Shown in pieces: positions 31 to 59,728 of a DNA stretch of 64,000 nt. A model generated the notes under the pieces. It worked only from the letters and a program-made list of their open reading frames with translations. It had not been told where the DNA came from and did no database searches. Origin of the DNA: Lingula anatina (Eukaryota > Animalia > Brachiopoda); contig CM120648.1 in NCBI GenBank assembly GCA_051362555.1, forward strand, positions 7,808,587 to 7,872,586. Reading direction: 5' to 3'. Each line of letters begins with the position of its first letter. The stretch's first letter is position 1. The translations under genes were made by a program, and so were the position numbers.

Positions 31-1809
31 TACAACCACACACAACTGACCCTGTTACATGTATATATATTCCGTTATTCCAGGTCTCCAAGCTAATGTC
101 ACTGATTTACCTAATCACATCCCTTTAACATTGGCACGCTTGAGAGGCGGGAGAGACAATAACAGTAAGTGTTGTTTTAAATAAGTTTGACAATAAAGGG
201 TGTAAATTTTATACCAAAGGCTTCATACTGTAAGATGTAACATTATTCTTCTCTTTAATTCTGTACATTTGTTTCTCCTTAATGCAACATGTACATAGGG
301 TTGTCATTTTTAATAAATTCTAAAGGAGACGCTAAATATTTGGATTATTTCAAAGAATCAAAAGCTTGAGAAGTGCAAATGAACAGAAAATGGGAGGAGG
401 GCTTTGCCAGAAAAGACAAAAATATGTGAAAGGTGGTTAGCTTTAGAGACAAGCGCGTTGACCCGTTTTTTTATAAGGAAACAGTAAATCTAATGGTATG
501 TGCTCCTTTAGGAACAGCACTTGTTTTCAAGAGGGCTCATAAGCCATAAAAAAGGCTTGCAATACAAACTACTAAATCATGGACAGTATTTATGAGAAGA
601 TTCAAGTAAACTTCGTCTTCAATGCAATAAATTTGTAATGTAAAAATGATCCAAATCATTTACTAGCGAAAGAATATGATATAAGAAACGCCAACGGAAG
701 TATTGGCTATGCACCCTTATTAATAAGCTTCAGATGCAGTTACATGTAGAGTCAATTTCAAAGACATGCTATTGTCTTGTTATATATTTAAGTTTTATGT
801 TTTAGTTCTAACGTGGGATGACGGTAATGATAAAATCCTTCGTGGGGATGTCAAGTATAACAAATCCGAAAAGTGCCTAAGAGTGGAGCGAGAGGGGCAC
901 TTTCTCGTGTACAGCCAGCTCTGTGTGAGCGTTCCCAGTACTACTACTAGTTCAGCTGTGCATTTTACTCAAGCAATCCAGATAAGAATTCCATCCGGCT
1001 GGCACAGTGTGCTTTATAAGGAACTTAGTGTGCAGCGAGGCCATATTGATTGCATATATGTGTCAGGAATAGTGCACCTCGTCAAAGACGACTGCGTCAA
1101 AGTTGATTTTTCAGATGAAGAGTTAATCAGTAGCAACCAGGAGTACAATTCGTTTGGTTTGTACATGCTGGCATGAACCAGTCGTTCTCAATGCCTGTGA
1201 GGCCTTTATTTTTATTAGTAACGATGTTAATACAGTAAGTGACATTTCCGGGGACTTCACTGTGTTTCATTGTCAGTAAATGAGAAAATCAATGACTTCT
1301 TAAAACACATGCATTGTGCTTGTTCCCCAGTATGACAGTTAAAGAAAGACGACTATTTAATAAATGCCCATGTTTTTAGCTAATATTTTAATATTTAAAA
1401 ATTTTACGAATCCATATAGACCCAGAGATTCAAACAAAATTCATTATGCCCCCATGTAGAAATATGTCTCATATTGGTTAGGTATAGCATCTTATTGTAT
1501 ATAGTATACATGTTCTGTGTTTTACTGTCTTCCAATACAAATGTATTAGCATTCGCTAATATTGCGTGACCTCAGGCCACTGATTGGTCAGTAACCTTAG
1601 CTTGTTCAAGAATTGTTTTTCATAAAAACGGTATATTGCTACCATGCAGTACAAATTGCCTTGCTTTAAATTAATCGTCAGTACATTGAAAATATTTTAA
1701 TTGTTAAAATCCATTTTCTGTTTTATTTTTTATGTTTTTCCATTGATAAAAAGGAGATGTGCATTGCCAATGACATGTACTATGCTGTATCAATAAAACG
1801 TAGATTATT
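31..1809 (+). repeat. Segmental duplicate of 51229-53130 (ligand exons, intron and 3'UTR)
   Basis: Colinear high similarity by eye through the intron and 3'UTR. Similarity ends just after atcAATAAAacg(t/c)agattatt in both copies. Confidence 0.95.
84..1176 (+). CDS. TNF superfamily ligand, paralog A (last two exons only; 5' part lies left of the window)
   Basis: Exons 84-164 (cag|GT...AAC A|gtaagt; GLQANVTDLPNHIPLTLARLRGGRDNN) and 806-1176 (ttttag|TT CTA ACG TGG...TGA), both phase 1. TNF homology domain motifs: LARL strand A, LTW, LRVEREGHFLVYSQL, IYVSGIVHL, NSFGLYML. AATAAA near 1793. Confidence 0.92.
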
Positions 1810-1893
1810 TAGCAAGTCTGAGAGTTGTCTTTTCGTCGTATTTAGGTGGTCAATCGGTATAATGAAACAGATAAATAAAGCAAAGAATATATA

Positions 1894-2093: not shown

Positions 2094-4132
2094 CTGTCAT
2101 AATTGCCTTGCTAACTGCTTTCTATACTTAACGATTTCCAAGTGTTTTCGACTCATCATGTTTTTCCTACTAGAAAATGTTACCTTAGATCTCGGCATCT
2201 CTAGGACACTTTGGAGCAGGTAAAACTGCTCCATGTTTCACACTGTTTTTATTTCATCTTTAAAGTGAATTTATATCTGTGCTGTTGATGATAGCTGCGA
2301 CATAACTAAACATTTAATTAAAGCTCGTTTTCTTTTTTTTCATTTTCTACATTCGAGCTTAACCCAACAATTTACTTTTTCAGAGTATATGTCCAAAAAC
2401 ACGACTAAAACGTAAGTATCACAAACAAAAACGTATATAAATTCTGGTGAAATTTGTTCAGATATGACGTGCTTATGATCTTGAAAGTGCCAAAAATTTC
2501 AACAAAATATTCGGGAAAAATCTAGGTCCTGATTTTAGCTTTAAAGAAGGACATTTTATCACCATAAATTTCTTTATGATAAATTTATGATAAATTCCAT
2601 TCCCATTTGCCAATGTCGCCTGCGCGCTGAACCACCCCACACCAGCCTCGGCACACATCTGTACGATGTCACCACACTCATTTACGGATAAACACAACTC
2701 TGGGCCTCAGACGACGGCGGTCAGTCCGTCTATTCTGTTCTGATTAGATTCCCCAATTTCTATGCAACCCATAAGAGGCAGACGGCAGGATATCCGGCGG
2801 CTGCGAGTGACGTCGATTGCGTAAAAGTGTTCCAGAACTGCCCACGTGATTGCGTGCGCATGACTCGCCTAATTATTGGTAAAGAGAAACTGGGAATGAA
2901 AGTGACCGGTGAAGTGTTTGGGAGATTGACAAATACAACGTTGGGCCAGAACATGTGTGACAAGCTTCGTCGGGAAATCGATTCGCCAGGACGAACACTC
3001 GCTATCACTTACGATCCCCATGCCTGTGGCAACGAGGTTGTGACGTATCCGTTGTCACAGAGACTGTGCTGCACCATGGTGCCGTCTCCCGTGGGCCATC
3101 TCCTGGCTTGGAACGCCATGTGTGAGGACGGGGACACATTTTCCATAGGAAATATTATTGGCTAAAACATAATACAGCGGCTCATTAACACGCTCATTTA
3201 GAAGAAATGTACGATTTTAGGTCATGGTTTTGTACTTTCCAGACATTGAATCATTTTTCTTTACGGTATACATACGTTTATATCAAATTGAACCCAACAG
3301 TTAAAATCGATGTAAAAAAATGTGTCTACTGGAATAAAATGAAACAAAACATACACGGGTAGTTTTATTTATTATTTTATTTTATTTATCTCTATGCAAT
3401 TAGATAGTGGTACGTATAGTCCTTATACACTAGTACATGTACATGTATATGCCAAAAATTTTATGTCATTCATATCACGCCCTCCCTAAAAGTTTGCTGC
3501 AATTAGATTTAAGCGAAATACAAAAATTACAAAAACAAAAATGCGATCAATTGCCGAACAGAAGTTCCAAATAAGATAAAAATACTAAATACTTAACAGC
3601 GAAAAATTAAAGGCGAACAAACAAACACCTCGATCATAATCCTTAACTACGAAAATGGCATGATTCAGAACAAGTGTAAGAAAGTACTCAAAGTGACAGA
3701 GGACACTACATGATATCTCTATTTACACTCAAGCTAAAATGGACGAGCAGTTTACAAAACGATTCAGCTTGGGGATTTGCAGTTTCGGTCATTGCTACTC
3801 CGTAGACACGTAAAAATACATGTTATGATGATACATGTTATGACGTATATGCTAGTACAAACACGCTTCTATACTACAAAACCGCCATTTTCCGTCCATG
3901 TGTCCTACACATCACAGCATTATTGTCCTCATCAACTACTTCATTTTTGCCGAGAGAAAAGAGACAAAAATCAACCCTGCACCCCCGGCAAAGTCCTGAC
4001 TCCGCCAGTCCAAAACTTACATGTTAGAAATTCGTCTGTCTTCTAAAAATCATAAATTGAAAAAATCGGTTTGCTTATTACGTGTATATTCATTTGTACT
4101 CTTGATAATCCAACACTTTAAAAACGTTCGTA

Positions 4133-5189: not shown

Positions 5190-8100
5190 TTATGAATCAT
5201 TGCTGGCCCTTCCTGTGAAAACGGGTACATATTTACAAAGTACAGTATATGCTCACCAGTTTCTGCGTGCATTTTAATCTTGTTAAATTAGGAAAAAAAG
5301 GGACATCTGCAAAGCACTTTTCAACCAAAGAAAAATGTGACTACGTATTTGGCATTGCATCTGTATTTTGTTAATTTGTTTTGTTATGAACCATGATCCT
5401 TTGCGTTCAGAGGAAATCAAGTGACTTACCTTTTAATTGATCAACAAGGTCCTGATAACCTGCTTGTGATAAGCACGTATGAAACAACTGACGCGTAAGA
5501 GGGTCCCTTTTGTCCTTTATAACGTTCTGTAGTGCTTTAATTGCAGTGCTTCTGATTTTTTTCCGGAAAGGCACATGTCTTACTAACGGGAACTTATCAG
5601 GTTCTCGTTCCTCGATCTCCGTCAAATCTCTCAGTATATCGCCTTGAGGATTTAAAAATGAAAACACTGATAGAACATGTTAGCACTAGTACAAGACTGA
5701 TATTTACAGACTAATTCTGCTCAATGCTAGCATGGATACTACATGTTAATACATTTTTGTTTATGGGAACTAAATAGATTTTTCCAGTTAATGATATTAT
5801 TGCCTATTTTAAACATTCGTTTTCAATTCATAATTATAATGCAAATGTAACGTATTCAGTCCAAAGCACTTTCACATATACAGGGTTAATACTTAATATG
5901 GATTATTTTTATCATGGTTATTTTTGAGTGCTGATTAAATATTTTTTGGCTTGATTCATAAAAAAAGTATGTCACTAAGTGATAAAAACATCCAGTTTTC
6001 TGTTGTGAGATATTTTGGTCCCCAAACAGAGACGTTACCACCCCCCTGCTTCCACCCTAGGCAGTACACAATCATCGTTTTATGCCTCTCGTACACGTCG
6101 GCAGACACGGAATCGACCGTCCACCCCAAAAATTCCATATCTGACCTCATCACTGAAAACGAAGTGATTCCAGTGTTTTGGCTGCAAACGCACGTGGTCC
6201 CCAGCCCATTGCAAACGTCGCTGTATATGACCTGCTGTTAACAGTGGTTTCCGTACTGGTCTTCGTGAAAAATAACCGGTTTGCAGTAATCTCTTGTTCA
6301 CGAGGGACCTTGAAACGGGCTTTTCTGAGCTGGTTGTCTTTGTACGACCAGCACGGATCACTCTAAGGAGAAGGCGATCCTGTCTTCTTGGTGTGACACG
6401 CGGACACTATGGTGGAAGTGTTGGAGTAGGTGCCCCTGTTGTAGCATTTCTTTGGAGGACTTTACTAACGGTTCCTGAAAAATGTGGAATTGTCTGGCAA
6501 TGGCTGTCGGTTTCTGGTCATTTCCTCTGAGAGCAAGAATCCCACAGTAAGCTGCGTTGCTTAGCTGTCGAACCACATCTTCTCTAAGGTATCTGTCAAG
6601 TTTCAGAGCGATCCCTTTGTTGCTTCTCTAAATACACTCCAAAGATTGACCAAACCCATGCGTTTTTATACAAGGGCAGAAATTGCCAAAAAGACAACCC
6701 CTCACATTTCTGACCAAAGAACATGCAACTGCATGCATTAATTGTTTCGAGAGCTGTGTAGTAATTAGGTAACACACCTGGCTACACATGGAGTGACACC
6801 TCAGTTTTGGATTTAAAAAAAGTAAGAGAAAAATTAATTATTTTGTAGAAAATTTAATTGCCAAAAATAATAATCCATATTAAGTAGTAACCCTGTATAT
6901 ATTTCATCCGCACAGTAGGTCGCACTTAACAGATGTTTCAGCAATAACAAAATGTGCATTAGACAGATAGTTTGAACATACAATAAACATCAGTTTAAAA
7001 GATATGATATGAGAACGCCCCTATGAACATAAGGTGAATGTAAAAAACTAGTTTAGCCGGTCGCACTTCTCTTACCTTTTCCATCCGCTTGTACTAGTCT
7101 AAGATCAACTGAAACAAAACATCACATGGATACATACACAAAGCTTTGAATATGTGAAATAAGTTAGTGGTGCTGCATGGTTATTTTTTTCTGGATTTCT
7201 GTAAACCATCCCCAAACAAAACTGTAAGTCTCTTTTATATATTTTTAAACATATAAGTAAAACATCGTTTAACTAACACATTATTACCCGTACAGTATTA
7301 TCTACCATTACTATTTAGTTCTTTACTATAATGATGCCTTATACTGAAACATTATACATGTAGCAGCACTTATCAGGTGTTTCAGCAATGACAGAATGTG
7401 CAAGAAACAGTTCTTAAGTATAAAAACAACGTAATTAGAACGTCCCTATAAACAAAAAAAGGTAATTTTACTAGAACACTTATTCATTATATAAAGAATA
7501 ATAATTACCAACTAGAGAAATGGCAATGCATCAATTGTATTGTATCGTCATTAGTATATCATATTGTACAAGGTCATGACAATCTATGTACCAGTACAGA
7601 AATAAATTGAATATAAACAACAAGTGGACATTAGAACTAGTTCAGCCAGTCGCACTTCCCTCACCTCCCCCTGACACCTGTTGGTTTTTTCCATTCAGAT
7701 CTGAAACAAACAGTACTGACATTTATAAGGAAATATATAAAATATCTGAAAAGAACAAATCATGAATAACGAAGAATGGAAGTACTCATACGTAAATGTA
7801 GATGAATGCACCCCTTATCTAATTTAGACAATGACTAATGAAAAAGTAACATATATTTTGATGGACTGATAGAAAAGAAAATGTTGACATTTTATAAAGG
7901 TAAACGCATTTTTAAAAACCTCCGGGTAAGAAACCTCCTTTACCGAGGCGTGCAGTCCCAAACACTAGAGATTTGGACTTAAAGTGCAATCTAAAATCAG
8001 TATTGAACTGACGCGGTCTTAAAGATTAAGTAAGCAGTCTTTGTTTTCCCTAAAGACTAAAAAGGAACAAAAATTTCAGAGAGTAAAGCTATTAATCCTG

Positions 8101-11100
8101 ACATGTCTTATCTAAAAATAAATGTTTTTCATTGCTTTTGAAGCTATATTTCTAAGCTCTAATATCAAAACATTAACAGTATGCTTCACTTGCACATCTA
8201 AGTCTTTGCTTGTTTTAGGAGTTGTCTGAGATAGTTCTGGTCTTAAAGACGCACCAGTGAAAGTAGCATGGAGAAATTTAAGATGAATAAAAAAGTAAAA
8301 GAGGAAATCTCTCTCCCCCTCTCTCACTCTCTCTCTCTCTCTTTCAAAGACACTCGCGCATGATACGTTACTTACTGTCATTAAAGATTCTTGTATAAGT
8401 ATTGTTTAGCCATAGTTTTATATCTTCTTGCGTCAAAAATTTTTTCTCCATAAATGTGGTCACCAATTTCCAGTCAAAAGCAGACTGTGCCAACCATCTG
8501 ATGTCTTCCAACGGATCGTCTGAAACAATTTTAATCAGAATGTATTTGCAACTTACTTATTTAATATAGACACTGCATTGCACTATAAACTGAAAAGGTA
8601 TTTTATCCGTTCAAAGAAATATATGATCAAAATTAAGAGCTGGAAATAAAATGAATCTTATTTATAGAATGATGTATAGATATCTGAACTCTCTTTCTAC
8701 CGATACAATCTATACTCCCTTAACAAAATTTAGTGTGACTCCTATCATATTTATGTACATTGTTTCAAAGGTACCCTTACATTTAATATTACTATTGCAT
8801 AGCAACTAGGCAACCGATCATGGCTTATATTGGGGATGTGAACTTTAAAACATTAACCTACCTAGAATGACTATTGAAGAACACCAACATCAAGTATTTA
8901 CAGTATAATATGCGGCTCCTAAGCTAGTGGGATACATATTTCACCAAGCGGTTGACATGGAGGGGGGGGCACCGAATCCCCAGAAAGTCGGGTTGTTTCA
9001 TGCGACCCATACAGATGGTTAGACAACATTATAACCAAACAGGCACATAGGCGGGCTACCTGGGAAAGGCAGGCTACCTGGGAAAGGAATACCATAGGAA
9101 AACACACAGAGAGAAGAAATGGTGTCAATATGCTTCCTTAGGATCTTGACTGCAACACCAGGAACTGTCTACGTTGTATTGGGATTCTGGCAAGGACACC
9201 AGCTAACAACTGTGCAATGATACTGTTCTCAGATGAAAGCAGGTTAAACGTTGTGAGGAGTGATGGACGCGTAGGTGTCTGGAGAAGAGATGCTTTGAAG
9301 TAACTTCCAAATGTTTTGCCTCTGTTCAGCAGGATCAACCCCCATAAATCACGGTATGGGGTGTAGTGGCTACTGTGGTGTAGGCGAGCGGGATGTGATC
9401 AAGAAATCCCAAAGAAAGGCAATAAAACCAAGCACTGGAGAGGAACTTGCAGAATTTTGTATACAATGTTTTGGGGACCATGACCATTCATTTATGTCTC
9501 AGCTTGATAATGCTTGTCCACGTTCAGCTAATGCAACAGTAAGCTGGTTATATGCATGGGCATTATGAGAGAAATGTCCATGTTATATGCTAACCAGTTC
9601 CAGATCCCTAAATGACGAGCTCAATATCTAGATCAGAACCTCATTCAGGATGTGTAGAATTTCACAGAAAATGGGTTACTTAGGATATATCCTGCAAAAA
9701 AAATTCCCCACCCTACCTTGTGCCGTATAAAGAACGCCAACACTCCGCAAACGCTACAGACCTTTGACTCTATACACAGGCTTGTCAAGTTCATTCTCTA
9801 ATCTAGAGAGTACTGTGCAAAATCTTTAAAAGTATCTTTGGCTTTTTACTATGTTTACATTGTTCAATGATTGTACAATCAATTAAATTTTATAAAAAAA
9901 AAACTGAACAAAAACATTGGCTTAGAGCACGATTCTCTTTACTGTATTTAACACATTGCATTATATCTGAGACTTTTTTAGTTAGGGGAGTATACAGTGA
10001 AACAGACATAAACAACTTAAATTTCAGTACCAAAGAAACAGAATGGGCGAGCTACCAGTTTCACAACGACAACAGTGAAGTTTCTACACCCAACTGAATG
10101 CCTACTCATATGTTGAAAGGTCTTACATTGCATAAAAATATTTACTAGGATATGAAGACCAATAGCAGTGTTTTGAGCAATTTAATGAGAGTGGCCAACA
10201 TTGTGACATACTGCCATCGGATGCATAGGAAATGCTGTCCATTATACATTTCGCCTACATGTTAAAGCCCCCGTCACACTTATTCGGAATCAACAGGAAT
10301 CCATCGGGACCAGTTGGAATGACTCAATTAAAAATTTGTACTACGTTCGCGAAGAAATTTCTAATTGGCCTAAATTGTAATTGTAATTGTGAGGATGCCT
10401 TTGGAATACTCAGAATGCTCTTGAATCCGCTTGGAATGATTCGTGCACATTTCGGCTGTATTGGCTCTCAAATACAGCCCTATAGGTGGAAAACTAGGAA
10501 TATCTATAGTGCTGTCAGAATGCAGTCAGAATATTTAGAATTCACTTCGAATGCCGTACGAGTGTAGTTCGATTGCTGGCTGAAATAGGATTGAGATGCA
10601 TTCGAGTTGCGTTTTGGCTCATCTGTCTCTAGCAGGATTTGAAGTGTATTGCCATTTTGGTTCTCCCTCAAATGTGATCAGAATGTTTCGAATGCTGTCG
10701 GAATGCCGTGAGAATGTTTAGAATGCAGGCATAGTGCAATTAAAATACTATTCACATGCCATTCGATAATTTTCCACTTTGAATGCACTTCGAAAGACTT
10801 TAACATGAGCAAAACATTCGGGCCGGCCACAAGAATGGATAGAAATATTTGGAATGCACTTGGAATTCTTAGAATGCTCTTCGAATATCCAGGAACGCAC
10901 AAAGAACTGTCTTTTCAACGGCATTCTTGCTCATTCCGCCTCTAGTGTGGAGGAGGTACAGGTATAACAAATGAACTGTATTTGTTAAGAAAAAAAAACG
11001 AAGAGGCTAACTGTCATTCATCAAACTAACATTAAAAAGGCAGGCATTCAAATGTTTTTTAAGTTGGCTTGGGCAACTGGTAAGGGCATGGAACTTCACT

Positions 11101-14100
11101 GGAAAAGGTTTGTATTAACATAACTAAAATTATAAGAAAATAACTAGTATGTCTCTAGAAAATATGTTGTCTATTCCTTGCAGAATTTTTCGTAGCCGTC
11201 TTTTTAATAGATATGGTAAATACAAACCTTGTGCGTTTTCATGCCGGTCATTGCCTAAAAGAAAGAGTAAAATCGTGAACATTTTATTGAACATTTATTG
11301 AAGGGAAAACAAACCATCCAACAGTGTGCATAACGTGGAGCGGTGAAATATGAACAATATGGCCTTGCCTTCTCACTACCTCATATGCAATGATTTGCAC
11401 GTGGAAATACGTATTGTTGTTTAAATTAATAAACAAAATTAATATGCAAATTTCTGTACATTCCGACATCCAGTTTAGATTGTTGCAATTTCCCAATTCT
11501 GAAGCACAACACAAATTCTTTACATTTTCTATATTTAGAAGGCACATGAATGAATGATATAGATTTGTACAACAACGCAATATGCCGGTAATACATCCTT
11601 AATCTGTGGAACCTTAATCTGTGGTTTATTATACCATCGAATGCTGGATGTGGTGTCGATAGAGTAACTTACTTAGTAATCTGCTAGCTAAGTCACCATA
11701 CGCGGAATTGGTCAAACAATCTAAAAGGGTCGTACGGTTAGGTTTGTCAGATTTGCTCCTTAAAATTTCCTTTAATACATCAATAGCAGTACGTCTAATG
11801 ATATACAGCTCATCCGGTTTCGCAATGCAGTCCATAGTTTTTCCCAATGGAAACCGTCCAGGTATTCCCTTGCTTGCTTCCAGATCATTGATCAACTCTG
11901 AATATATTTTGAAATACAAACATAAATAGGACATGTTGACATTTTTTTCAGCTATGTGGAAATGTGAATTTTGATATAGCAACTTATATAATCAACACGA
12001 CGTATTTACATATTTAAAGTTCACTATTAAGTTATTAGTGAAGACTAATGGTACTTATTCAGTTGAACGTACTGAACCCACCTTCTGTTTGGGCGTCTGC
12101 TTCCAGTAAATTCCGCTGATCTGAAATTAAAGAGAATGTAACATTTAGTAGTTTAAAGTACTTATCTTTTATCAGCCGTGTCTAGAACACAATTTATTAT
12201 TTTATAAAATGTTTTATAGAGGTTAAACACATAATTAAGTCGGGTGACCAAGGTTCGTTAGTATCGTGTGAAAGCTCATTTAGTCAGGAGTCAGATTAGG
12301 CCACACTTTTTTAGTTTTATGGATGACATCCTGCGCGCCCACCGATTTTCGTCCGTTCTCCGAAAAAAAACACCCCCAATGAAGTCGGTTGTCGCAAACG
12401 TCGTTATTGAATTTGCCGGTAAATAACCTTTTTGCTCATGCGTATTATCGCCACGTGGGAATATGGCCGCTTTGCCGTCAAATTCATCTCTAGGATTACT
12501 TTCAAATTACACGACAATTAAAGTTCTAAAGAGAACGGGGCCGTGGTTTTGGATTGATATGCCATTGAAATTGGGCATGGAGATATCACCTCTTTACAAC
12601 CATACGAAAGGCTGACGGCGGCCAGTGATTATCGCCCGGGAAATTTCAGTGACATTCTGTCCAAAGCAGCACATACCAGGCTTTTTTTCTTGTAGTTAAA
12701 AAAAGGGTCGACAGGGGCGTCGAGGTATTTGGTGGTCTGAAAGTTGGACAGGCCACCCGACAGTTTGGCTGCTTCGCGTGAATCGAAGTAGACAAAATGG
12801 CATCGGCCAAATTGAACTTTAATAGATTTGGTAGTATTAAGCATAGGCCCCCTATATATATATATATCTTTGCATAATTTTTTTACATTTCTGTGAAGTG
12901 TTCATAAGGCTTTAATATGCTGAGAGTACAAATTAGGACACACTGTTTGTTTGATATGTGTTTTATTGGTTGCTATGCCAACAAAATGCATGAAATAACC
13001 TTAAATAGATTTGGTAATATGCAGCATATCTAATCGTGGTTTTTTTACCTTTCTACGAAGCATTCACATTTCTTTAATATTTTGAGAGCATGGATTAAGA
13101 CATATTGTTAGTTTGACACGTGTTACTGTGGTCATTATGTGTTTCCAGCTGTGTACTGACAGTATACTAGTATACCTTTACTAAAGCAGTATTTTTGGAC
13201 TGTTTTTTATTCGCCCTCTCGCACCAATTTCGGGGTCCCCATAGGATGTCATCCATAAAAATAAAAAAGTGTGGCCTTATGTTTGTAGAAGTTTCAAACC
13301 AGTAGCTTTCACTATCATGTAAATGGTCATTATATAACACCAAGCAGCTTTACAAATGGGTTTTAAAATGGGGGTAGGAAAAAACATCCGCATTATGATA
13401 ATTAAATAAGATAAATCAATGAATAACATTTCAGTATCTAGCTGAATGATTGCTTGCTTTATATTCAGTAATACAATTATGCACCAATCAATCGCATATA
13501 ATCAAATATGGACAGATGTCATCTGAGGTCAAATTTGAGGCATTTGTAGGGCCAATACACCAATAGAGATTATTTTTAAAAAGAAAATGTAAATCAATAA
13601 TTATATACATAAATAGGACATGCTGACATTTTTTAGCTACTTGAAAATGTGAATTTTGATATAGCAACTTGTATAATCAACACGAAGTACATACATATTT
13701 AAAGTTCACTATTAAGTCATAAGTGAAGACAAATAGTACTAATTCTGTTGAACTTTATGCACCCACCTTCTGCTTGGCGGTTTGCTTCCGGTAAATCCAG
13801 TTGAACTGAAATAAAAGAGAATGTTACATTTAGTATTTTAAAGTACTTAACTTTTATCAGTTGTGTCTAGAACATAATGAAATGTTTTTTTCACAGATTG
13901 AACACATAATTAAGTTGGATGACCAAGGTTCATTGACATCATGTGAAAGCTAATTTACATGTAGTTACAAGCCTGAATATGTATGTACTACTTGCAAACC
14001 AGTAGCTTTCACTATGTAAAGGGTCATTATATAACACCAAGTGGCTTTAAATGCATTTTAAAAATAGGGGTAGGAAAAAACATCCGCATTGTGAGAATTA

Positions 14101-23100: not shown

Positions 23101-26100
23101 AGGTTTTTTAAAGGCCACGTTTTCACATTACGACATCTTGATTTTTTTGTATTAATAATCGTTATGTGCACTCCTTTTGCAGATGACACAAAAAAAAAAA
23201 AAAACTGAAGTCAGGAACGATACCATCCATATTTCTATTTAATAAAGTCAAAGATGTACCATCATCACGTACTAGCCGTCTAGCTAAACGCCGCAAAGTA
23301 TCGGATCCGGTGACAGTACCAACAGCTCCTGATTATATTCATGAAGTGGAGGTAAATATAACGCATGATATAATAACATATTTATAAATAAAATGTTTCT
23401 TTATATTTGTAAAATTATCTGTGTAAATACTTGAAACACTAGAGACGGACTAAAGGGGACAAGAGGCAGTCAGATCTGCGTCATTTCTGTCACCGATTTT
23501 ATGTGTTAATTAATACATGAAGTATTTTTCTTTGTGTCATTTATTAACTTATGTATTTATTTTTTGTTATATCCTATACACTGTAAAAACAGTGCTTAGC
23601 ATTTAAATACATACAACATACGTTAAGCACCTATACGCATTTAGAAATATGTGTAAAAGCTAAGCACGTGTAGCTTTTCAAGCGTTTCACAGAAGAAAAT
23701 GCTAGACACGTTGGCAGTGTTACACGTTTAGCTGTGTGCTTAGCTTCACCGGTATATGGATCTATAATAAGTCTATCACAAGCTTAGCACATTGGCTAAG
23801 CACTTCCCCTGCTAAGCGCGTGAGGCTGCTAAACACATGGAGCTGCTATAGGTGTGGAATTCCTAGACGCGTGGAGCTGCTGAACAATACCCTCTACCAA
23901 GGCCGCAGTTCTTGGGGACATTTTTTGCTGAGGCGACATCAGATCAAATTGACTATCTATTTATCTAGAGACATATCTGTGAATATCGTGAAAAATCAAC
24001 CTGTCGCCCTGGTAGAGGGTAGCAGAACAACAGGTTTAGCTTTTCAAGCTTCTTTCAGAAGAAATAAAAATGTTTAACATTCTTAGAAGTGTCGCACTTT
24101 TAGCTATGTGATTAGTTTCACCGGTCCCATAAGTTTATTACAAGGCTCAACAATATGGCTTAACACTTCCCCTTGTAAACGTGTGGAGCTGTTGAAGGCG
24201 TGGAGCAGTCTGCTCGAACGCTTTGTGTCCTTCCTTGCAGTAACGCGTTCTTATTTAAAATAGACCTATTAAAGATGCATACAAAGTCATTTTTTTGCTC
24301 AAAAACCAACCAAATACCAGTATATAGTTTCAAAAAGTATAATTAAGAAAATTGCCAGAAGGCATTGATTAATATTACCCGAAAAATGATATTTGAATGG
24401 ATTTTTCTGTTAGCTTACTATCCTGTATATACATGGGGCAGAAAAGTAGGTCACATAAGTAGGTTAAATTTCTGACCAAAAATTTAAAGAGCAGTCTAAG
24501 GCTCTTTTATGGCTGATCGAGTGATTTATTCAGTTTGTCCCTTTATTTGAGTCGTATAAGAATCTAGTAGAAGTGGTTTATATGTGTTACTGGCAACCCA
24601 CGCTTCACCGATGCTCGGTTCATATGTACCTTTAAGTAATAATCCAAATAACAAATAACGTTTTCACGACGTTATCAGATGGTTACATGCTGGTTATGGT
24701 ATAAAAGAACATTATGGTAACGTTATGGGTGTTTTAATGATGTACAGTAACGTTATAATTTGTAAAAAGATTCGAAGACCTTTCTACAAAATTTTATGAT
24801 ACATGTAACGTCATTTTGTGGAGTTTTATCAGCGTGTTTATAACATTCTGGAAAAACATTATATAATGTTTTGAAAACATTTTTTTATATAAATAACCAA
24901 AACACGTCTTATGCTGTTTGAACTACAGTTAGCGGTTAATTCCAAAATGGGCTTGGGGTTAGTCAGCGACTAGAGAGGTGCGAATTGTAGAATATTCGGA
25001 CTATCGGTACCGAAATAACCAGCATGTGATGAAAGCTTAAATAAAGTATTATAATGAATACCCCACCATCATCCTGATGTTCTATTGTTCATTACTTCCG
25101 GAAAAAATAAATAGATATCAATACCGTAACGCATTTTATCAAAATATGGAGAAAGGTGTTTTAAAGTAAAAATGATAGTTGTTTCGTGCCTTTAGTGAAC
25201 TAGTGAATTTTCCTAACCTGCTTTTCAGAAATACATTCCAATAAACTACCTCGCAAGGTCAGCTAACACAAGGATGAATAAGTCCAGCTGTAAAGATGAT
25301 GGTGGGAAGTCAACGATGTTGACAGTTCACGGTACCCTGTTATAGAAAGAGATAACTATAGCAGTTAAAGGTGACCGTGAGTTCGTGTGTGTGTGTATGT
25401 GTGTGCGCGCGTGCGTGCGCGCGCGTGTGTGTGCGACCAAAACAGTTGAAATCAAAAATTTAAACAAATACACCCTACATTTATAAGCCGTCAAACGCGT
25501 CATACTGCTAAACACAAGCGGGTAACATGTTAAGGAGCTAAGCATGTTAGGAGCTAAACGCGTCGAAAAAGTGAGACAAAACAGGCGCTTAGAAATGCGT
25601 TTAGGAGCTAAACACTGTTTTTACAGTGTAGGTTGAGTGTAGGTTCTCAAGCAGATGAAGCAGTGGAAGACAAACATGAAGACTACCCTGGTGAGAGCCA
25701 AAACGAAAGTACAGCTTCCCAGTGTGATATCACTACACCATCAGACATAAGAGAAAGCATCATGCTGTACCAGAAAAATGCAAAGGCTGTCCAGTATCTA
25801 ACTGGATTTAGTCGTTTTGAACACTTCATGTTGTTTTTCAATTGTCTTGGGCCAGCAGCTCACCACTTGAATTTCAAATGTTTGTCACCAGAGGACCAAT
25901 GTTTTTTGACCATTATGAAACTGAGCCAAGCCTTTCACGATTATTATTTAGCTCTCCGTTTCAAGCTATCGGTAACAACGGTGTCAGAAATAATAAGCAC
26001 ATATTTGGATCAACTTTGTTTTTTTTTCAGTTCAGTGAAATGAACATTTGGCCAGAACGTGACATTGTTGAAGACTATATGTCTGTAAATTTTAAGAAAT

Positions 26101-29100: not shown

Positions 29101-32100
29101 GCATTTCAATGCACAGCTGTTTCTGATGTCATGCAGGAGTGTAAAACATTGATAAAAAGTTCTCTCACTGATATGCTTAAAGATTTTATGATTATTTAAA
29201 ACCTGCATTAATAGAACATGGAGTCGACAAATAAAGGTGTGCACTTTAGCTTAGTTATAACTTTTTTCGATCAAAAAATACTGAATAAAATTAAATTGAA
29301 AAAAAAACTGATTATGTTGTTGTTATTTGAGAGAGGAAGAGAGGAAAAGGAAGTAAATTGAATACCATTTAAACAGGAATACATTGCCTGTACGTCAAAA
29401 GTACGACCGCACACGAACCAATGCAACGTTCGTTGTTGCATAGACAGTGGGAATATACAATGACAAATATACTGCATAAGATCCAATGATATGTATTTGT
29501 GAAATGTGTGTTTTTGCGACAATTTCGTTAACATAAATTAGAGTTTATAAACATTTACTTACTGTAACGCCAACAGTAGTAAATCCATAGGATGAACAAC
29601 ACAACAAAAACTAAAAAAGACAAAATATAAAATAGACTAAATAATGCTTTTATAGCCGACTGTTTGCTTTAATAATTAACTGTTATTTAAGTAAATATAT
29701 GAAATGTTGCGATTAGGAAAATTTCATATCTAAACCATTTACAAAATTAAATATGTAATATTTTTAAAATCTTTTGGATTATAGTACTGGGACCTTTGAA
29801 ACCATTTTGATAGATACAATGCAAATGTAAGTTCCTCGTGCTGTTTCACACCGAAAACTTACAAACACCAATACTAAAAGCAATCCCAATACCAATCCCA
29901 ATCCATATTTTGTAGTCAGTAGGTTCGCTGAAAAAAAGAAAATTTGTGATCAGATGTGATAACAAGGTTTATCAGTATTTGATACATCTGCTGAGAAATA
30001 AATGCTACGATTACACCCAGCTCTCACAAATAATCCGGCCCCCAGCAGTTAAGGAAATATACATGGTTAAGACAGAATGGTCCAAGATATCGAATATTCA
30101 TCACCATTTTTGTTTGTTCCTAATTTAATATAATAAAATATTTTATGGGCTTTGCGTACAATGAATATTTTCTTCTACAAAAATAAAAGTAATTGCATTT
30201 CATTTCGGTCATATCCTTTAGCAAAGGTCCCATGTCCAGTATGTGACGTACATTTATATGCATTTTGGTGTCAAAACGCCAAAGACGGTTTCAAAGTTTT
30301 CGTATAATTTACCATTAAAATTATTGTACAACCTGGTCAAAGAACTTAAACGCCATTTTCTTTGAATTGCTCTTACCTTTGGTTTTATCTCTATGTGCAT
30401 AAATGACATGAAATAATAACTGCAAAGAGCTAGATCACAAATTACAGATACCGTATTGTAATTTATACATATTCAACAAGTATGAATTTCCATGATGATC
30501 AAATGGACAGGTACATGTACATGTTATGAGAGGTCTTTCAGAGCGACACGGCTAACTCTGTTGGGGTGTGAATTCAGCGTAACAAAACCTTTCAAACAGG
30601 TTAGGGGCTCGGCACGTTAAAAAGGCCTATAGTTGGAAACAAAGATCTCCCCGTTCCCTTATGAGAAATACTGATCTTAAGAATTCATTGAATATAACAT
30701 CCTTTAAAGCACGCCGCCCCTTTTATGCTTATTCACCACCCCATCTGCTTTTGCACATAAGGTGACCAATTGTTGTTAATATTTGTAGCCAAATTTCGTT
30801 GGTTTGTAGTATGGCGTGAGAAATAGATCGGCCTCTGACGTAACTCCGTAACTAAATTAGATATTGTCATGAAAATCGGCATGGTTGAGGAACTTGGTGT
30901 AAACGATCATTTGCACTGGTGCCAGCGTTTGGATTTAATTCTTTTGTGTAGAAGATACCCCCCTCTTATCAAGACATTCCATTAAACAAAGGCATTATAT
31001 TTCGTTTCTTTGCTGATAAAATTGAAAGTAAACATTTCAAAAGAATGTCCTGGCACCAGATTGTAGTAACTGATGCTCTGAATAAAATGGTGTTTAAACG
31101 TTTTTTGTTGTTGGGATATCTGTTAAGAATCGATGTTATCAATTTGCACCCAAAACGCTTCTCAAATTCACACCGATGTATTTCTGATGCGACTGCATTA
31201 CATAACAAGACACTAATTTCCACATTATCCAAGCAGACAAAGAAAATTTTTAAGTATCGAGCTCCCTTGAAAAACATGACATAATGGCTGCCATTGTGTG
31301 TGAATGACTGACATTTAATCTTTATATCTATTATGACGTTAATGTACAACTTTTACGCGGTTTGCTTCGGGCTGTGACCCTTGCACGACCTCGTAACGAC
31401 AACGGAAATTATGTAAATCCCACTGTTTTGGCTGTTTTCTGCGTTTGTCTGAAAAGTTGAAATATTAATAAACTATATACCTACCAACAATTAGGGTTAG
31501 GAAACGGCTTGCAGTGTTTTTCTTCGTCGAAATGCTCAACATATTGGCCATTCTCTGAAGCAAAAAATGTGAAAATAACCCAAGTGTATGTAAGTTATCC
31601 TTAGCTATTAATTATCATTATCCATTTGAACATATTATGAGAAATCAAAGAAACAAACAAATAAATAAATAAATGTTATGAACAACTGACGCATGTGTAA
31701 ATCTTTCCCTCTGTCTAAGACTAGTAGTAAGAGATATCGCCAACACTTGAATGTGCATAAAGTTGTTACACAGACAGACGATAATCAAGTAAAAACGTTT
31801 GATAAATAAATAACATGCTTACTGTCTTTTATGTGAGGGTAAGTTCCCTCTGGGCATTTTTTGCAATGACAAAATTCGTTTTCCTTCCGACATCGCTTCG
31901 GTCTTTCTGGTGCAAAACGCTTGCACTCGTTACACCAGCATTTGTTATCCTAAATAATAATAATAATGATAATAATAATAATAATAATGTACATTCTGAA
32001 ATCCATCATATTCAATAGACTTAAAGGTACATACAAACTGAGCATCTGAGGAGCATGGATTCCCAGTAACACATGTAAACCACTTCTACTAGTTTCTTAT

Positions 32101-35100
32101 ATGACTCAAATAAATTCGACATGAAAAGGGATAAAGTGAATAGATCACTCGATCAGCTATAAAAGAGCTTTAGACTGCTCCTTTCTTTAAATTTTTGGTT
32201 GGAAATTTAACCTACTTTTGTGACCTACTTTTCTACCCCATTGACATACAGCATAGGATGCTAGCAGAAAAATCCGTTCAAACATCATTTTCAGGTAAAA
32301 TTAAACAATGCCTTTTGGTAATTCTCTTAATTATACTACTTGAAACTATATGCTGGCATTTGGTTGATTTTTGTGACAAAAAATTGACTTCGTATGCATC
32401 TCTAACAATGAAAATACAAATACATATTACAAAAAAAAAGAAAAACAAATTGATTAAAAAACAAAATGATGTACTCTAGAAAGAAAATAATTGTTTTACG
32501 ATATAATAAAGGCAAGAATAAGGCGGGGCAAATTTGAATTATTTGATGATAAAAGTGATGACCCTCACCATTAAAGCACATAATGCAAATAAAACTAGTA
32601 AGTCAATGATTTAATGTGAGGCGATTTCACGCGAGAAATTTTACGTGTGCATATGGTCACTGTACCACACATTCATAGCGGGCATCGCCCTTAGAGCTTT
32701 GGATCTACCAGTACCCCCCCCCCCCCCCCCCCCCCATCTTCCGGGTCACTGCCCACTCCCTCCTCCAGAAAACAGTATATCGAACAAAACGAGACAAATC
32801 AAGCAGTGTCCCTACTATACATATTACAGTAAGATTACGTTTGTGCCGCTTCATTTGGCTTTTTTGCCATTTAGCATCCTCTGTCTTTCCTTAATTACAA
32901 AGGAATGACCTGCCAGTGTATATTTGAGACATTTTAGATTTAGATTTTTACCTTAGACAAACCATGTTCAAATCGTTTTGATTTAATAATAATAACATTT
33001 ATTTCTTAAAAACCGGACTACACTACTGTCTCAGTGCTGTTTACAAATAAAATTCTCAGAATTACAAGTAATATATAAACAGTTAAAGCTGAGGTAAATA
33101 AAACAATCAAATCGATTATTGCTGGTTATAACAGTAATAGTCTAAACAATAAATCATTTTTCTGATAAAATGAGAAAATATAGAATATCAAGTATTAAAT
33201 TTTAATTGAAGTACTGTGCAAATAAGAGCGTTTTCAAGTCTTTTTTAAAAACCTCAACACTATCAATAGTCCGAATGTGTTAGGGAAGTTCATTCCATAA
33301 AATGGGTGCTACAATATTGAAAATGCCCTGTGGCCTTTTTTTGTCATTTCTGGCAAAGCAAAGAGTGGAGGTGGACCTGGTGGACCTGGTGAGATTGGCT
33401 GAACTTGGATTTAGCATAGAGTTAAAATATGAAGGGCATTCCCCTCTGGTGAATTTAAAAGCAAGCAGCAGTAATTTGAAAACAATTCTCTGTCATAAAG
33501 CCAATGTAGTTCGAATAAAATAGGTGAAATGTTTGATCCGAGAGGGGTTAATTTTGGTCAGTAGTCGTACTGCAGCAATTTGGACAGATTACAGTTTTTC
33601 AATTTGGTAGGTAGGAAGACCTTACAGTAGAATGTTTCCGTAGTCAAGATGTGAAGTTATGAAGGCATGGACAAGCCTCTGCATTTGACCTTTGGGATAT
33701 GGGATAATCTGGAGATTTTTTAAGACCATAGACTTGCATTTTTACTGATGTCGGCGGCCATATCGCACCTATTATCAAATATTACTCCTAGGTTTTTAAC
33801 CTCGTCTTTTCTTGTGACCATGCTGTTGCCGATTTCTAATAGTTCTAATTTTTCTGCAGCTAGAGATAGATGAACTACTTCTGTTTTGTCATAATTGAAA
33901 ACAAGTGAATTGGCGTTAAACCATGAACTCAACTAACTTATTCATTTCTGGATAGATGGTATCACATCTGATGGCCTGTCACAAACAACATAAATTTGTG
34001 AGTCATCTGCATAGAGCATTTGGTTGAAACTTTACTTGGTGACTTGTAAAGAGTTTACAGGATGGGGCCGAGTAAACAGCCTTGTGTACATGCCAGAAAC
34101 TAGTATAAGAGAACTTACAAGAACGAAACTAGAATCACAAGATTTAATTACAAATAACCAATTAATCATAAGATCTACCTTACAATATACATTCTTGTAT
34201 TTGGACAGGGCTAATTTCAGAGCAATCTTAATTCATTGAATCCATAAAAAAAAATAATAATAATAAAATAAAAAGTTTAAAGGATCATATACACAGGTTT
34301 TATGTTATCAGTATGCATTACAGATAACGTAACACTCTATAAGAGATTTTGTTTAATTTAAAATTCAGAACAAGGCAATTTCTTGCATAAAAGGGTACAA
34401 TCATTCAGATTAACAAGAAATTAATGTAAAGTTCGAACAGTTAAAACTGAATGTTTTAACAAATATCCCTTTTACTTTTTAAAGGGAAACCGATTAATTT
34501 TAATATACAGGTACAGAGCTTAACCCTAAATTTATTTTAAAGATGCTATAGTCAAAACTAAACACTTTAAGAACTTTTATAAATTATGTTTTAAATTAAG
34601 ACTCCATCATTAGAGCATTAATTAAGAAAATATTTAGTTTGATATCTTTATAAAGTTAATAAAGTTTTATTTTCTTGTAACTTTCAGCTTCGAAATGCAA
34701 TTCGACTGAATAAAATATCATTATCATATCATTATTAAAATATTGCTATGCTGTTAGAAAATTTAGCATCTGATATATCACAAACAAAAAAAATTAATTA
34801 TTAAAATAATAATGACTTGTAAATTGTGAAGGACAAGTTGAATATACATACATGTATGAGTCTTAACTTCAAACGTACACCAGCCAACATATGCTCAAAA
34901 CACTGCAATTACCTGTGTCATATTTCCAGCTCGATAGATATATTGCCCTTCACTTTCCGCGCACGATTGCAGTTCCTCACATTCCTTTCCGTCAATAATA
35001 CGTGCTCCTGAAAAGGAATACAAAAAAGGAGAGTAAGATGTGACATATGCTACACACAAACACTCTTGCTGCAGCCACGTCTTGTCCATAATTTGATCAA

Positions 35101-48424: not shown

Positions 48425-48709
48425 TGACTGCATGGGGTCAATCTTTAGACTCTGATAAACTGCGCTGCTTACATTTGCACTGCTGATGACCTAGTTTGAA
48501 TACTCAAAAGAAAGTGACCTGGTAAAACCCAAGCGTATCGCATCGAAGAGAAATAAAAAAACAGGTGCATTTAAAAGATGAAGACACGGCGCGGCTTATG
48601 CTCGCTAACAAAAAGAGCTCTTCTCACAAAATTCTAAATGCGTATATCTGCAAAAGGACTGTGACTAGAAAGCAGCATTTGACGATAACGAAGCCCTTAA
48701 ACATTCCCG

Positions 48710-51700
48710 ATGATGAATGTTCGTGGTTATGATCACCGACTTCGACCTCAGCACCTGCGTGTGTACGATGAGCCACCGCTGTTACCTTCTTCGCAATCCT
48801 CGGACCAGTCGAGTACGACTGACGGCTTGTACGCGTCCATCCGACCATCCAACATCACAACTGTAGACCTTGAGTCATTTTCCGATCCCAGTGAAAATGG
48901 CAGTGGTCACGACGACAAAATGAAGCTTGGACGACGATGGCGTTGTTACCTCATGGTGATCTTCGCCATGTGTTGTTTACAGATGATAGCCATAGTGGTT
49001 CTGGGTGCTGCTATTCATTTTCATCAACATGATGACGGCAAACCATCCAGGGACACGGCGGCTCTTTTGAGCCAACCAATAGCTATGTCCCAAAGCGATG
49101 TTTTAGAGGATGGGCATGTTGGACCAGCTTCCTTGTGTGTTCCAGGCCTGGATATCAAATACCACAGTGAAAACTGCACCGTACTTAAAATATTGCATCG
49201 GGTAATTGCGACAGTTTATATTTCTTCGGTAGACTCTAGTGTGTTTAACTGGTAAATAATCAATTAAAATCACATTTTAGATGCATGGAACATTAAGAGC
49301 TTGAAAACTACCGGTACATGCTGCAATTATAAGACGTATACATTTATTTAGCGACTCAGTTGCACTTGCAGTTTCCCTGTTATACTGTGTCAAAAACGTT
49401 TTAATTTCATTTTGGGAGTTAATTTAAATTACATTGCCTATAGTTACGTTAGTCTCAATAAAGTCTACCACTACCCAGGAGACCGTTGAGCCTTTACAGT
49501 ATGTATTAACTTACTGCTGTTTATAATTCCAAAGATACCAGTATACAGCTGCTCTAATAATGCCAGAAGCATTCCTTGTTGATAATGTTGATAATATTAC
49601 GCTAACTGATTTTTACGCAGCATTTTTGTTATTATCATTACAATTAAATGGTGATAAACCTGAATTATGCCATCTTTGGTTAAAAAGAAAGAGGAAGTAG
49701 AGTAACACATATCGGTGCGATGGTGACGCATTGCTTTTATATGGTAAATATGGTGGGGTATAGTTTGGTGAAACAGCACGGCGATGACTTTTTATCTATT
49801 TATTTGCAGCTCCTGGAAAAAGTTGACAAAAATCTTCATGCAGCTATGAACGACATGAATAAAACCGCCAATAATGTGATGAATGGTGCGTGCAATGCTT
49901 CCTCTACCATAGAGGGCTTACAGTGTTGGGAAAATAACCTAAACCATGGTCTTAGAATTTGACACCTGAACCACTCTTCTATTCATATTATCACATCGGA
50001 TTCGTTACTTTTTCAACACTTAAAGGTCATTTTTATAAGTTACTTATCTAAAACCATGCTCAGGGGACCCATGACGTATGGATTGTCAAACACAGATGAA
50101 ATGCCAGAATACTCCTCCCCTCCTCCAAAAAAAAAAAAAAAAAAAAGGAAGACAGAAAGAGATAAACGCCCAGCAGAAGAAGAAGAATGCTTCTTTGGTG
50201 TTATAGTCCCTTTAATCTTTGTCCATAGGAAAATAAGTTTACTTTCGTCCAGAAATATGTCCGCGTGAAATATACATGTATATTCAATTGTTTACGCATG
50301 GCATCTTGTCTACTCTTTAACGCGTTTTTCCGTTTTTCTTTATATATTTTTCCTTTATATATATATATATATAAAGCCGTTTAGTAAATAACAACCTTTG
50401 CATATATACTTGTGTACGATAAGTTATTTTAATCGTTGTCAATATCCCTCCTTACAGGTGTCAATAGAAATATGTCGAAGCTGGCTATAAACAGTCGTCT
50501 GCAGGACAGCGCTCTGTACAATATCACGGAGACAGTTGCTACTTTGAATCAGATAATGAATGGTAAATATGTTTGAACGTCTAAACAGGCAATCTAGTTT
50601 TTTCATATTCCCCTAAACCTTTTTCCTTCTTATTTCTATTTCTCTGTAGGTATGATGTCCCTGGACACAATTGATGCCAGTTTTGGCCCTTGGTTTCATA
50701 GACAGAACGAAAATGGTGCTTTGTCTTTATACTATAACTTTTGCTTTCTGTAGAAAATGTCAATATTGAGATAAGTTCCCTTTTTAACTTTCACAACAGA
50801 TTATATTAAATCGGTCCTGAGTGATAACTGTTAAGGTCAACCCCGTGGTTATCTTAAAATGATACCTATATGCTTGTGGAGGTACTGCAAACACTTTCTT
50901 CAAATATGAGTCACCATGATGGAATATATAATCTTAAACGATATTATGCCTGAAAATAATTTATGTAAATATCTGTTTGTAAGTTGTTTAAACAGTTTGC
51001 GGTACATTATTTTTAATACAAATAGAAAGATTAAAGGCAATGTGAAAAATGTACCCGTACGGTACCAGAATAAATCATAAATATGATAATCTGTCATATT
51101 TACGGAGCAGAACTAAAACCTTTATTTTTATAGTATTAATAAAAACCCTTTTCTGATTTGGGGCAATTAAGGGCTTTTTTCCACTCGTTTTGCTTCTTTT
51201 GGGTGAAAAAAATTACAATACAAGCCGATACAACCACATACAACTGGCCCTGTTACATGTATATATATTCCGTTATTCCAGGTCTCCAAGCTAATGTCAT
51301 TGATTTAACGTATCTGTCAAGAAAGGCTGACAACCCTTTAACATTGGCACGCTTGAGAGGCAGGAAAGACAATAACGGTAAGTGTTGTTTTAAATAAGTT
51401 TGACGATAAAGGGTGTAATGTTATACTAAAGGGTTCGTAAGATGTAACATTATTCTCTTCTTTAATTCTGTACATTTGCTTCTCCTTTTAAAATGCCAAC
51501 ATGTACATAGGGTTGTCATTTTAACAAATTCTAAAGGAGACGCTAAATATTTGATTTATTTCAAAGAATCAAAAGCGTGAGAAGTGTTAATGAACAGAAA
51601 ATGGGAGGAGGGCTTTGCCAGAAAAGACAAAAATATGTGAAAGGTGGTTAGCTTTAAAGACAAGCGCGTTGACCCGTTTTTTATAAGGAAGCAGTACATC

Positions 51701-52525
51701 TAATGATATGTGCTGCTTTAGGAACAGCATTTGTTTTCAAGAGGGCTCATATGCCATAAAAAAAGGCTTGCAATACAAACTACTAAATCATGAACAGTAT
51801 TTATGAGAAGAGTCAACTAAACTGCGTCTTCAATAAAATAAAATTTAAAAAAGAGGCGGATCAGAAAAACTGAAAAATAAAAACTTTTTTCTCATCATAC
51901 ACGCTGCATAATTGATATTTTATCTTCAACTAGTTTGTTTCACTGATAACCTTCTATTGTACTTAGATACACGAATGAAACGTGTAAAATACCAACATAA
52001 CTTCTGTGATGTAAAAATGATCCAAATCATTTACTAGCGAAAGAATATGATATAAGAAACGCCAACGGAAGTGAAGTATTGGCTATGCATATGCAGTTAC
52101 ATGTAGAGTCAATTTCAAAGACATTTTATTGTCTTGTTATATATTAGTTTTATATTTTAGTTCTAACGTGGAATGACGGTCGGGATTTAATCCTCCAGGG
52201 AGACGTCCAGTATGAAAACACCGAAAAGTGCCTAAGAGTGAAGCGAGAGGGGCACTTTCTCGTGTACAGCCAGCTGTGTCTATTCGTCCCCAGTACTAAT
52301 TCAGCTGTGCATTTTACTCAATCAATCCAGAGAAGAATTTCAACCGGCTGGCACCGCGTGCTTTATAAGAAACTGAGTGTGCAACGAGGCCATACTGATT
52401 GCACCTATGTGTCAGGAATAGTGCACCTCTACGAAAAAGACTGCGTCAAAGTTGATTTTTCAGATGAAGAGTTTATCATTAACAACCCTCAGTACAATTC
52501 GTTTGGTTTGTACATGCTGGCATGA
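48710..52525 (+). CDS. TNF superfamily ligand, paralog B: type II membrane protein, 377 aa, 5 exons
   Basis: Exons 48710-49201, 49810-49885, 50458-50562, 51282-51377, 52161-52525 (1134 nt, phases 0,1,1,1, all GT-AG). Cytoplasmic tail, TM YLMVIFAMCCLQMIAIVVLGAAI after RRWR, helical stalk, C-terminal TNF homology domain (LRVKREGHFLVYSQL..YVSGIVHL..NSFGLYML). Confidence 0.93.
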
Positions 52526-53504
52526 ACACGTCGTTTTCAATGCCTGTGAGGCCTTTATTTTTATTAGTAACGATGTAAATACAGTAAGTGATTCCCGGGG
52601 ACTTCGCTGTGTTTCATTGTCAACAAATGAGAAAAGCATTGACTTCTTGTGCTTGTTCCCCAGTATGACAGTTAAAGAAAGATGACAATTTAATAAGTGC
52701 CCATTTTTTTTAACCTAATATTAAATTTTACGAATCCATATAGACCCAGAGATTCAAACTGAATTCATTATGCCCCCATGTAGAAATATGTCTCGTATTG
52801 GTTAGATACAGCACCTTATTGTTTATAGTATACATGCACCTGTGTTTTACTGTCTTCCAATACAAATGTAATAGCATTCGCTTTTGCGTGACCTCAGGCC
52901 ACAAATTGGTCAGTAACCTTAGCTTGTTCAAGAATTGTTTTTCATAAAAACTGTACATTGCTACCAGTACAAATTGCCTTGCTTTAAATTAATCTTCAGT
53001 ACATTGAAAATATTTTAATTGTTAAAAATCATTTTCTGTTTTATTTGTTATGTTTTCCTATTGATAAAAAGGAGATGTGCATCGCCAATAATATGTACTA
53101 TGTATGCTGTATCAATAAAACGCAGATTATTGAGTGTCAATTCTTAAAAAACTGTCGGTTGCGCACCTGATTGCTTTTATATCCTTTACCCGCCAAACAA
53201 AAAATAAACAATTATGAACTTTTAACAATAATAAACATAACATAACATAATAAAAAAATAATTAACAATTAACAAAGCTAAACGATCATCCTCTTCAATA
53301 AGTGTCATTTCTCAACGAACTTGTTAAAAAGAAAAATTGCCGTGGGTCACATACGGTAGCCCTGCTCAACATGTACCAGTACAGCCTCTACTTTTCATAG
53401 CATGATCATAGTATAGCCCAAATATTTATATGTATTAACATTGTTATATGTATATTTGTGTTTCGATTTTTTCTCTTCTTATTCCTACAGTTCCTCAGTG
53501 CATA

Positions 53505-59600: not shown

Positions 59601-59728
59601 TAAGACTAGTGTTCACCGCCGGTCATAACGCTTTGGATAAAGCGCTGCAAGTGCGTGTAGCTAAACTGCGAGAGAGGTACAGAAATATGGATCCTTCAGG
59701 ACATGTTGATCGTTCTGTTATTGATTAA
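56642..59728 (+). CDS. RING-HC + B-box fused to an immunity-related (IRG/IIGP-like) GTPase; one in-frame TAG at 57104-57106 (null allele, pseudogene or sequence error)
   Basis: Exons 56642-57200, 57584-58642, 59250-59728 (phase 1,1; 2097 nt). RING CPRC..CRHTFCLSC..CPLC..NPYVQRIL; B-box CEMC..CRTCTLFLC*DCRESH..H; IRG motifs GATGTGKSALVNALRG, LWDIPGYG, FIVRSKID, FLVSSYEISRYD, KKRERLERRI. Confidence 0.85.

Follow-up and report, generated by a model that had tools for sequence, protein, structure and literature searches.

Two tandem genes for TNF-family ligands in Lingula anatina differ about twice as much in the exon that encodes the TNF homology domain as in the non-coding DNA around it, and in that exon replacement and silent divergence are raised together. 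The reading that we prefer, at a probability of roughly 55%, is that gene conversion evens out the flanks of the two copies while selection keeps their ligand surfaces different, as in the opsin or MHC type of locus. Most of the replacements fall in predicted loops.

Two TNF ligand genes in tandem

The segments 806-1176 and 52161-52525 of the window (the whole stretch of 64,000 nucleotides that we analyzed) are the last exons of two TNF-family ligand genes, here called A and B. Self-BLAST of the window delimited a duplicated block at 31-1812 and 51229-53134, and the copies lie in tandem, 51 kb apart, with flanks that are unrelated to each other. The last two exons of ligand A fall inside the window, and its 5′ exons precede the window start. 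On the plus strand, A consists of a penultimate exon (84..164) for the stalk end and strand A, with AG/GT ends and a frame open into the last exon, a last intron (165..805), the last exon with the TNF homology domain and the stop codon (806..1176; Pfam TNF E = 6e-10), and a 3′ flank, likely 3′UTR (1177..1812), where the duplicated block ends, within the limits set by self-BLAST. The penultimate exon of A has five codons fewer than that of B, in frame, and differs from it at 8 of 81 bases. Part of the upstream match between the copies (84-164) is thus coding sequence.

Ligand B, also on the plus strand, was modeled with five exons. Exon 1 (48710..49201) carries the cytoplasmic tail, a hydrophobic type II anchor and stalk; exons 2 (49810..49885) and 3 (50458..50562) continue the stalk; exon 4 (51282..51377) holds the stalk end and strand A. 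Exons 2 to 4 have AG/GT borders, remain in frame and match P0005. The last intron (51378..52160) has a 162-base insertion that is not in A, and its joined form occurs in run X7. It is followed by the last exon with the TNF homology domain and the stop codon (52161..52525; Pfam TNF E = 1.7e-10) and by a 3′ flank, likely 3′UTR (52526..53134), which run X3 contigs span without intron cover. The model gives an open frame of 377 aa that aligns end to end with P0005, and its type II membrane anchor is a hydrophobic stretch at about residues 81-104, as read from the translation.

Both last exons scored above the Pfam PF00229 cut-off of 23 bits (39.6 bits for A and 41.4 for B), and a TNF-type exon matched CD40L at E = 1.7e-4. 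The AF2 model of copy A (pLDDT 84.6) adopted the jelly-roll TNF fold, with TRAIL (E = 5e-7) and TNF (E = 1e-6) as the best Foldseek matches, at TM values of 0.7-0.8.

The nearest proteins are from Lingula anatina itself, where the TNF-family records are annotated "uncharacterized." P0005, of LOC106175826 (P0003/P0005), differs from B in 32 columns of 377. In the collection searched, copy A had no close record and was 79% identical to P0003. LOC106178681 (P0001/P0004) and LOC106162807 (P0002) share the exon-1 and TNF motifs with our ligands at 43-48%. P0004, a 576-aa protein from an older gene model, has three tandem TNF domains (three stretches by Pfam) that differ from one another in the same loops, and it may represent tandem cassettes of exons 4-5 behind a single membrane anchor. 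Contigs of run X1 over exon 1 (48600-49215) reached depths of 250-500, against 28-48 for single types, although depth is not copy number, and their loose ends match P0001/P0002-like genes. This depth and these loose ends point to more paralogs elsewhere in the genome.

Divergence of the last exon and signs of exchange between the copies

We compared the last exons of A and B base by base and found 47 differences in 366 aligned bases (12.8%). Across 121 aligned codons there were 28 replacement codons, 7 codons with synonymous changes only and one 2-codon indel, in agreement with the initial annotation; a 29th replacement (I/V) falls in the codon split by the last intron. Two or three bases differ in 11 of the 121 codons, against 5.8 expected. 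The introns and UTRs, described earlier as near-identical, are less alike than that: in the true intron, 32 of 612 aligned bases (5.2%) are different and 11 gaps occur, and in the 3′ flank the figures are 41 of 602 (6.8%) and 8 gaps.

The excess of amino-acid change that had been claimed did not survive a count by sites. In the last exon, 35.3 replacement changes fall on 285 replacement sites and 11.7 silent changes on 78 silent sites, and this ratio (28:7 by codons) is the neutral one. By the counting method, dN was 0.135, dS was 0.167 and dN/dS was 0.81 (bootstrap CI 0.44-1.70). Under a maximum-likelihood codon model, w was 0.99-1.05 when the last exon was taken alone and 1.12-1.16 when exon 4 was added; over the domain, dN/dS was not significantly above 1 by counting or by the likelihood-ratio test against 1 (2dL ≤ 0.16). 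Exon 4 alone gave w of about 2.2 on 27 codons, which is not significant.

Both dN and dS of the last exon exceeded the divergence of the flanks (p = 0.0006 and p = 0.004, with exon 4 included in the flank figure of these tests). Of the four-fold sites taken alone, however, only 5 of 40 differ. Divergence forms a plateau over the last exon, at 11-17 differences per 100-base window against 1-9 outside, and the plateau is made of replacement and silent divergence alike. When the neutral rate was set to that of the flanks, the fit of the codon model fell by 2dL = 5.0. Because the silent sites of the exon also exceed the flanks, the contrast between exon and flanks is in part one of sequence age, as under gene conversion, and the last exon looks older than its own flanks. 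Conversion of the non-coding flanks had been named beforehand as something that could account for the contrast; the silent sites point that way, for part of it. Values of w above 1 emerge only when the flank serves as the neutral benchmark, a choice that the silent sites disfavor. The case illustrates that intron divergence is a poor neutral yardstick for tandem duplicates.

We also looked for signs of exchange between the copies. B and P0005 are identical over a run of 54 codons (p = 0.002) in which A differs at 13 sites; this comparison is one of coding sequence. A single exon contig of run X3, with a depth of 12.3, joins both an A-type (6.0) and a B-type (5.7) UTR piece, each of about 150 bases, and the depths of the two pieces sum to that of the exon contig. 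Beyond these pieces lies a single UTR contig of B-like sequence that differs at 7 of 511 bases, which is close to the published heterozygosity of 1.6% (PMC4595640). In runs X1 and X7, some stretches of the upstream non-coding sequence form a single shared contig, and others show a second type with 37 differences in 349 bases. All of this contig evidence is filtered and unphased and comes from the best 40 of 311 letter rows and the best 24 of 179 pieces. Within the A-B alignment itself, a runs test was null (p = 0.66), silent changes were not significantly clustered near replacements as micro-conversion would have them (p = 0.14), and neither the intron nor the UTR was patchy (p = 0.38 and 0.82).

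These data bear on the alternative put forward in the initial annotation, plain positive selection in young duplicates without conversion, under which the 5-7% flank divergence is the true age of the pair and replacements accumulate at 2-4 times the flank rate. With the flank as the benchmark, the loops of the predicted structure run at w = 4.1 (2dL = 29). The 11 multi-base codons are able to inflate dS and so fit this account too, as does the non-significant w of exon 4. The strands, however, would then run at w = 1.4, which is unlikely in a folded core; the silent sites of the exon are above the flanks (p = 0.004; 2dL = 5.0); and the X3 mosaic pieces and the 54-codon identical run point to exchange. 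We consider plain positive selection improbable.

It is more improbable still that the two copies are long-balanced alleles or haplotypes of a single locus that unequal crossing-over, or the assembly, placed side by side. Both types are present in run X1 and in run X7, with depths that are similar within each run (48 versus 43 and 95 versus 73), as expected of heterozygotes, and P0005 and B are allele-like in the UTR (7/511) yet differ at 15 of the last 81 residues (p = 0.001). Against this stand the 51 kb between the copies, their unrelated flanks and the presence of the same pair in two samples. In run X7, moreover, the block is bordered on either side by the flanks that belong to A (loose ends at 51229 and 53131). 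As both types occur in X1 and X7, and A's flanks in X7, the tandem pair is likely real.

Under conversion with selection, the reading that we favor, exchange between the copies would overwrite introns and UTR pieces, and tracts that cross the last exon would be removed by selection, leaving linked silent sites old. The last exon would thereby retain old replacement and silent differences together. Purifying selection would keep the strands, and surface substitutions together with swapped segments might make the two ligands prefer different receptors or help them evade pathogen decoys.

Replacements in the TNF domain

In a TNF ligand it is usually the TNF domain that is conserved, and the stalk and tail are usually looser. 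The third version of the gene, P0005, brings the number of last-exon versions compared to three. At the protein level, 12 of 223 N-terminal positions distinguish B from P0005, versus 19 of 153 in exons 4-5 (p = 0.021). For nucleotides, two contigs of run X3 were taken as the P0005-type version; this run has the P0003 residue at all 11 listed replacement sites. Between B and this version, exon 1 has replacements at 3 of 223 sites and the TNF exon at 15 of 218 (p = 0.003), where the 22 differences of the TNF contig comprise 17 listed, 4 inferred from the protein and 1 counted as silent. Silent changes were even, at 17 of 175 versus 5 of 61 (p = 1.0), the exon-1 silent count having been obtained by subtraction. 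With silent divergence equal, the density of replacements in the TNF domain is thus five times that in exon 1. This comparison, which does not depend on the A-B flanks, shows that the TNF domain has been either released or diversified, and it is not conserved like that of a normal TNF. Three-state sites had been considered as proof of repeated selection and were rejected: 5 were seen versus 3.8 expected with all sites free, which is chance level.

Mapped onto the predicted structure, the replacements between A and B affect 18 of 49 loop positions versus 11 of 72 strand positions (p = 0.009). The codon model gave w = 1.65 for loops and 0.57 for strands, with loops not significantly above 1 (2dL = 1.8). 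Strands B, G and H are unchanged (0/4, 0/5 and 0/8 positions), so the description of the core strands as invariant holds for these three and fails over the 72 strand positions as a whole. Nor do the changes cluster significantly along the sequence as had been proposed, the best 17-codon window reaching p = 0.054. Of the 29 replacements, 14 change charge by hand count. Evenly spread changes at a dN/dS not above 1 would have told against diversifying selection: dN/dS was indeed not above 1 (0.81; 0.99-1.16 by maximum likelihood), and the spread between loops and strands was uneven.

TNF family members contact their receptors through the AA′, DE, GH, CD and EF loops (PMC8558838). Strictly defined, these classical contact loops hold 12 replacements in 36 positions versus 17 in 85 elsewhere (p = 0.16), and 17 in 52 versus 12 in 69 when widened by two residues (p = 0.057), with no significant enrichment by either definition. 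Their w was 1.46-1.57 (2dL < 0.9, on two sequences and hence with little power). The contact loops are not significantly enriched because variation is just as high in the B′B and FG turns. Among the variable sites, S/R 68 is aligned with an arginine of CD40L that follows the DE loop, presumably Arg203. CD40L Arg203 is a CD40 contact (PMC12086146). The proposal of diversifying selection on receptor-binding surfaces therefore stands in part: from these sequence comparisons, selection on the ligand surface is likely, with loops above strands and the TNF domain faster than exon 1, and the receptor-binding loops are not significantly singled out.

That last result is also what relaxed constraint after duplication would give, with redundant ligand surfaces drifting neutrally and the core kept by folding; the flanks would then be alike only through conversion or 3′UTR constraint. 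Overall w of about 1, loops not above 1 and three-state sites at chance level all agree with neutral drift, and expression was low (6 reads on 4.6 kb in run X10, from about 6 in 100 of the run, a number too small for ranking). Drift, however, leaves unexplained why conversion should spare the exon, where silent sites are raised, and the stalk and tail, compared in the same way, change at one-fifth of the rate. The three versions A, B and P0005 contain no frameshift or stop, and the three indels among them are all in frame. We regard relaxed constraint as possible but doubtful.

Neighboring genes and comparable systems

Between the ligands, on the minus strand, we predicted a TNFR-like type I membrane protein of five exons (29563..35007; exons at 34913-35007, 31823-31949, 31485-31554, 29863-29927 and 29563-29610). 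All of its junctions are AG/GT with matching phases, and the chain runs for 134 codons without a stop. It encodes 12 Cys followed by a hydrophobic segment (KD19 2.83), in type I topology, and the cysteine spacing looks TNFR-like. A signal peptide exon was not found. The exons matched TNFRSF21 weakly in a PDB sequence search (E = 1 and 1.8), below chance hits to PDI; three of three single exons gave no Pfam match to TNFR_c6 repeats at E ≤ 10; and an Atlas search with these exons returned no match.

Further along the minus strand, two related helical exons (11632-11904 and 5428-5664) are 33% identical to each other and death-fold-like by eye, as is a third at 8378-8519, within 5428..11904. These exons may be the tail of the TNFR-like receptor. 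A protein search with a helical exon matched 0 of 137 candidates, Pfam gave no family for these exons and a PDB sequence search was weak. An AF2 model (pLDDT 56) found no fold match at E ≤ 0.001, and Atlas searches for receptor identity gave weak or no matches. One may picture a co-inherited recognition locus, in which a TNFR-like death receptor lies between the two hypervariable TNF ligands that it binds, and the ligand surfaces and the cysteine-rich domains of the receptor diversify jointly as haplotypes, in a polymorphic self/non-self or anti-decoy system made of TNF parts; we think this a long shot. Should the TNFR-like gene be the partner and vary together with its ligands, the importance of the locus would be far greater.

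Adjoining ligand B, a plus-strand stretch (56591-59725) encodes a RING finger (PF13445) and then an interferon-inducible GTPase domain (PF05049, 63.5 bits), and is likely a RING-IRG immune gene. Other features of the window are an internal duplication of a small exon and its flanks in the minus-strand gene (11912-12282 versus 13599-13957, 83%), a Tc1-type transposase piece (6083-6406, minus strand), a DDE-family HTH piece (25612-26040, plus strand), a decayed reverse-transcriptase-like stretch recognized by eye (33200-34100) and an ABC-2 type transporter exon (62983-63225, minus strand; PF01061). A plus-strand open stretch of 157 codons (2692-3162) with a C-G-x-C-C pattern matched no Pfam family above chance.

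[quoted passage not shown] Like them, A and B are tandem paralogs tens of kilobases apart with an exon more diverged than the introns and silent sites carried along. Unlike them, the plateau in the TNF pair spans a whole domain with about 29 replacements, and a third version differs again in the same region. The same source describes MHC, plant self-incompatibility and R genes as loci where selected variation is shuffled by conversion. Our ligands resemble these in having allele-like versions that are highly diverged in the binding domain, with mosaic pieces, and differ from them in that three versions were seen and no test gave w > 1 against local silent sites.

Lineage-specific TNFSF expansions and in-frame repeats of the TNF domain occur in invertebrates, and recent duplicates of TNF ligands, like ours, are common in lophotrochozoans (bioRxiv 10.1101/2024.07.27.603686). 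The terms "positive selection," "gene conversion" and "Lingula" do not occur in the main text of that paper, and the accessible part of PMC11463336 has nothing on Lingula TNFs. Our literature search, which covered few subscription papers, turned up no study of this locus, of conversion between TNF ligand genes or of linked invertebrate TNF-TNFR pairs. On the reading that we favor, the locus is a real, new example of a known, textbook process.

The comparison names about 30 residues as test candidates for ligand-receptor or host-pathogen conflict. A lophotrochozoan pair of TNF ligands in which the domain changes as fast as its silent sites do, and from which a third version differs just as much, is a candidate site of such conflict, whether between host and pathogen or between ligand and receptor.
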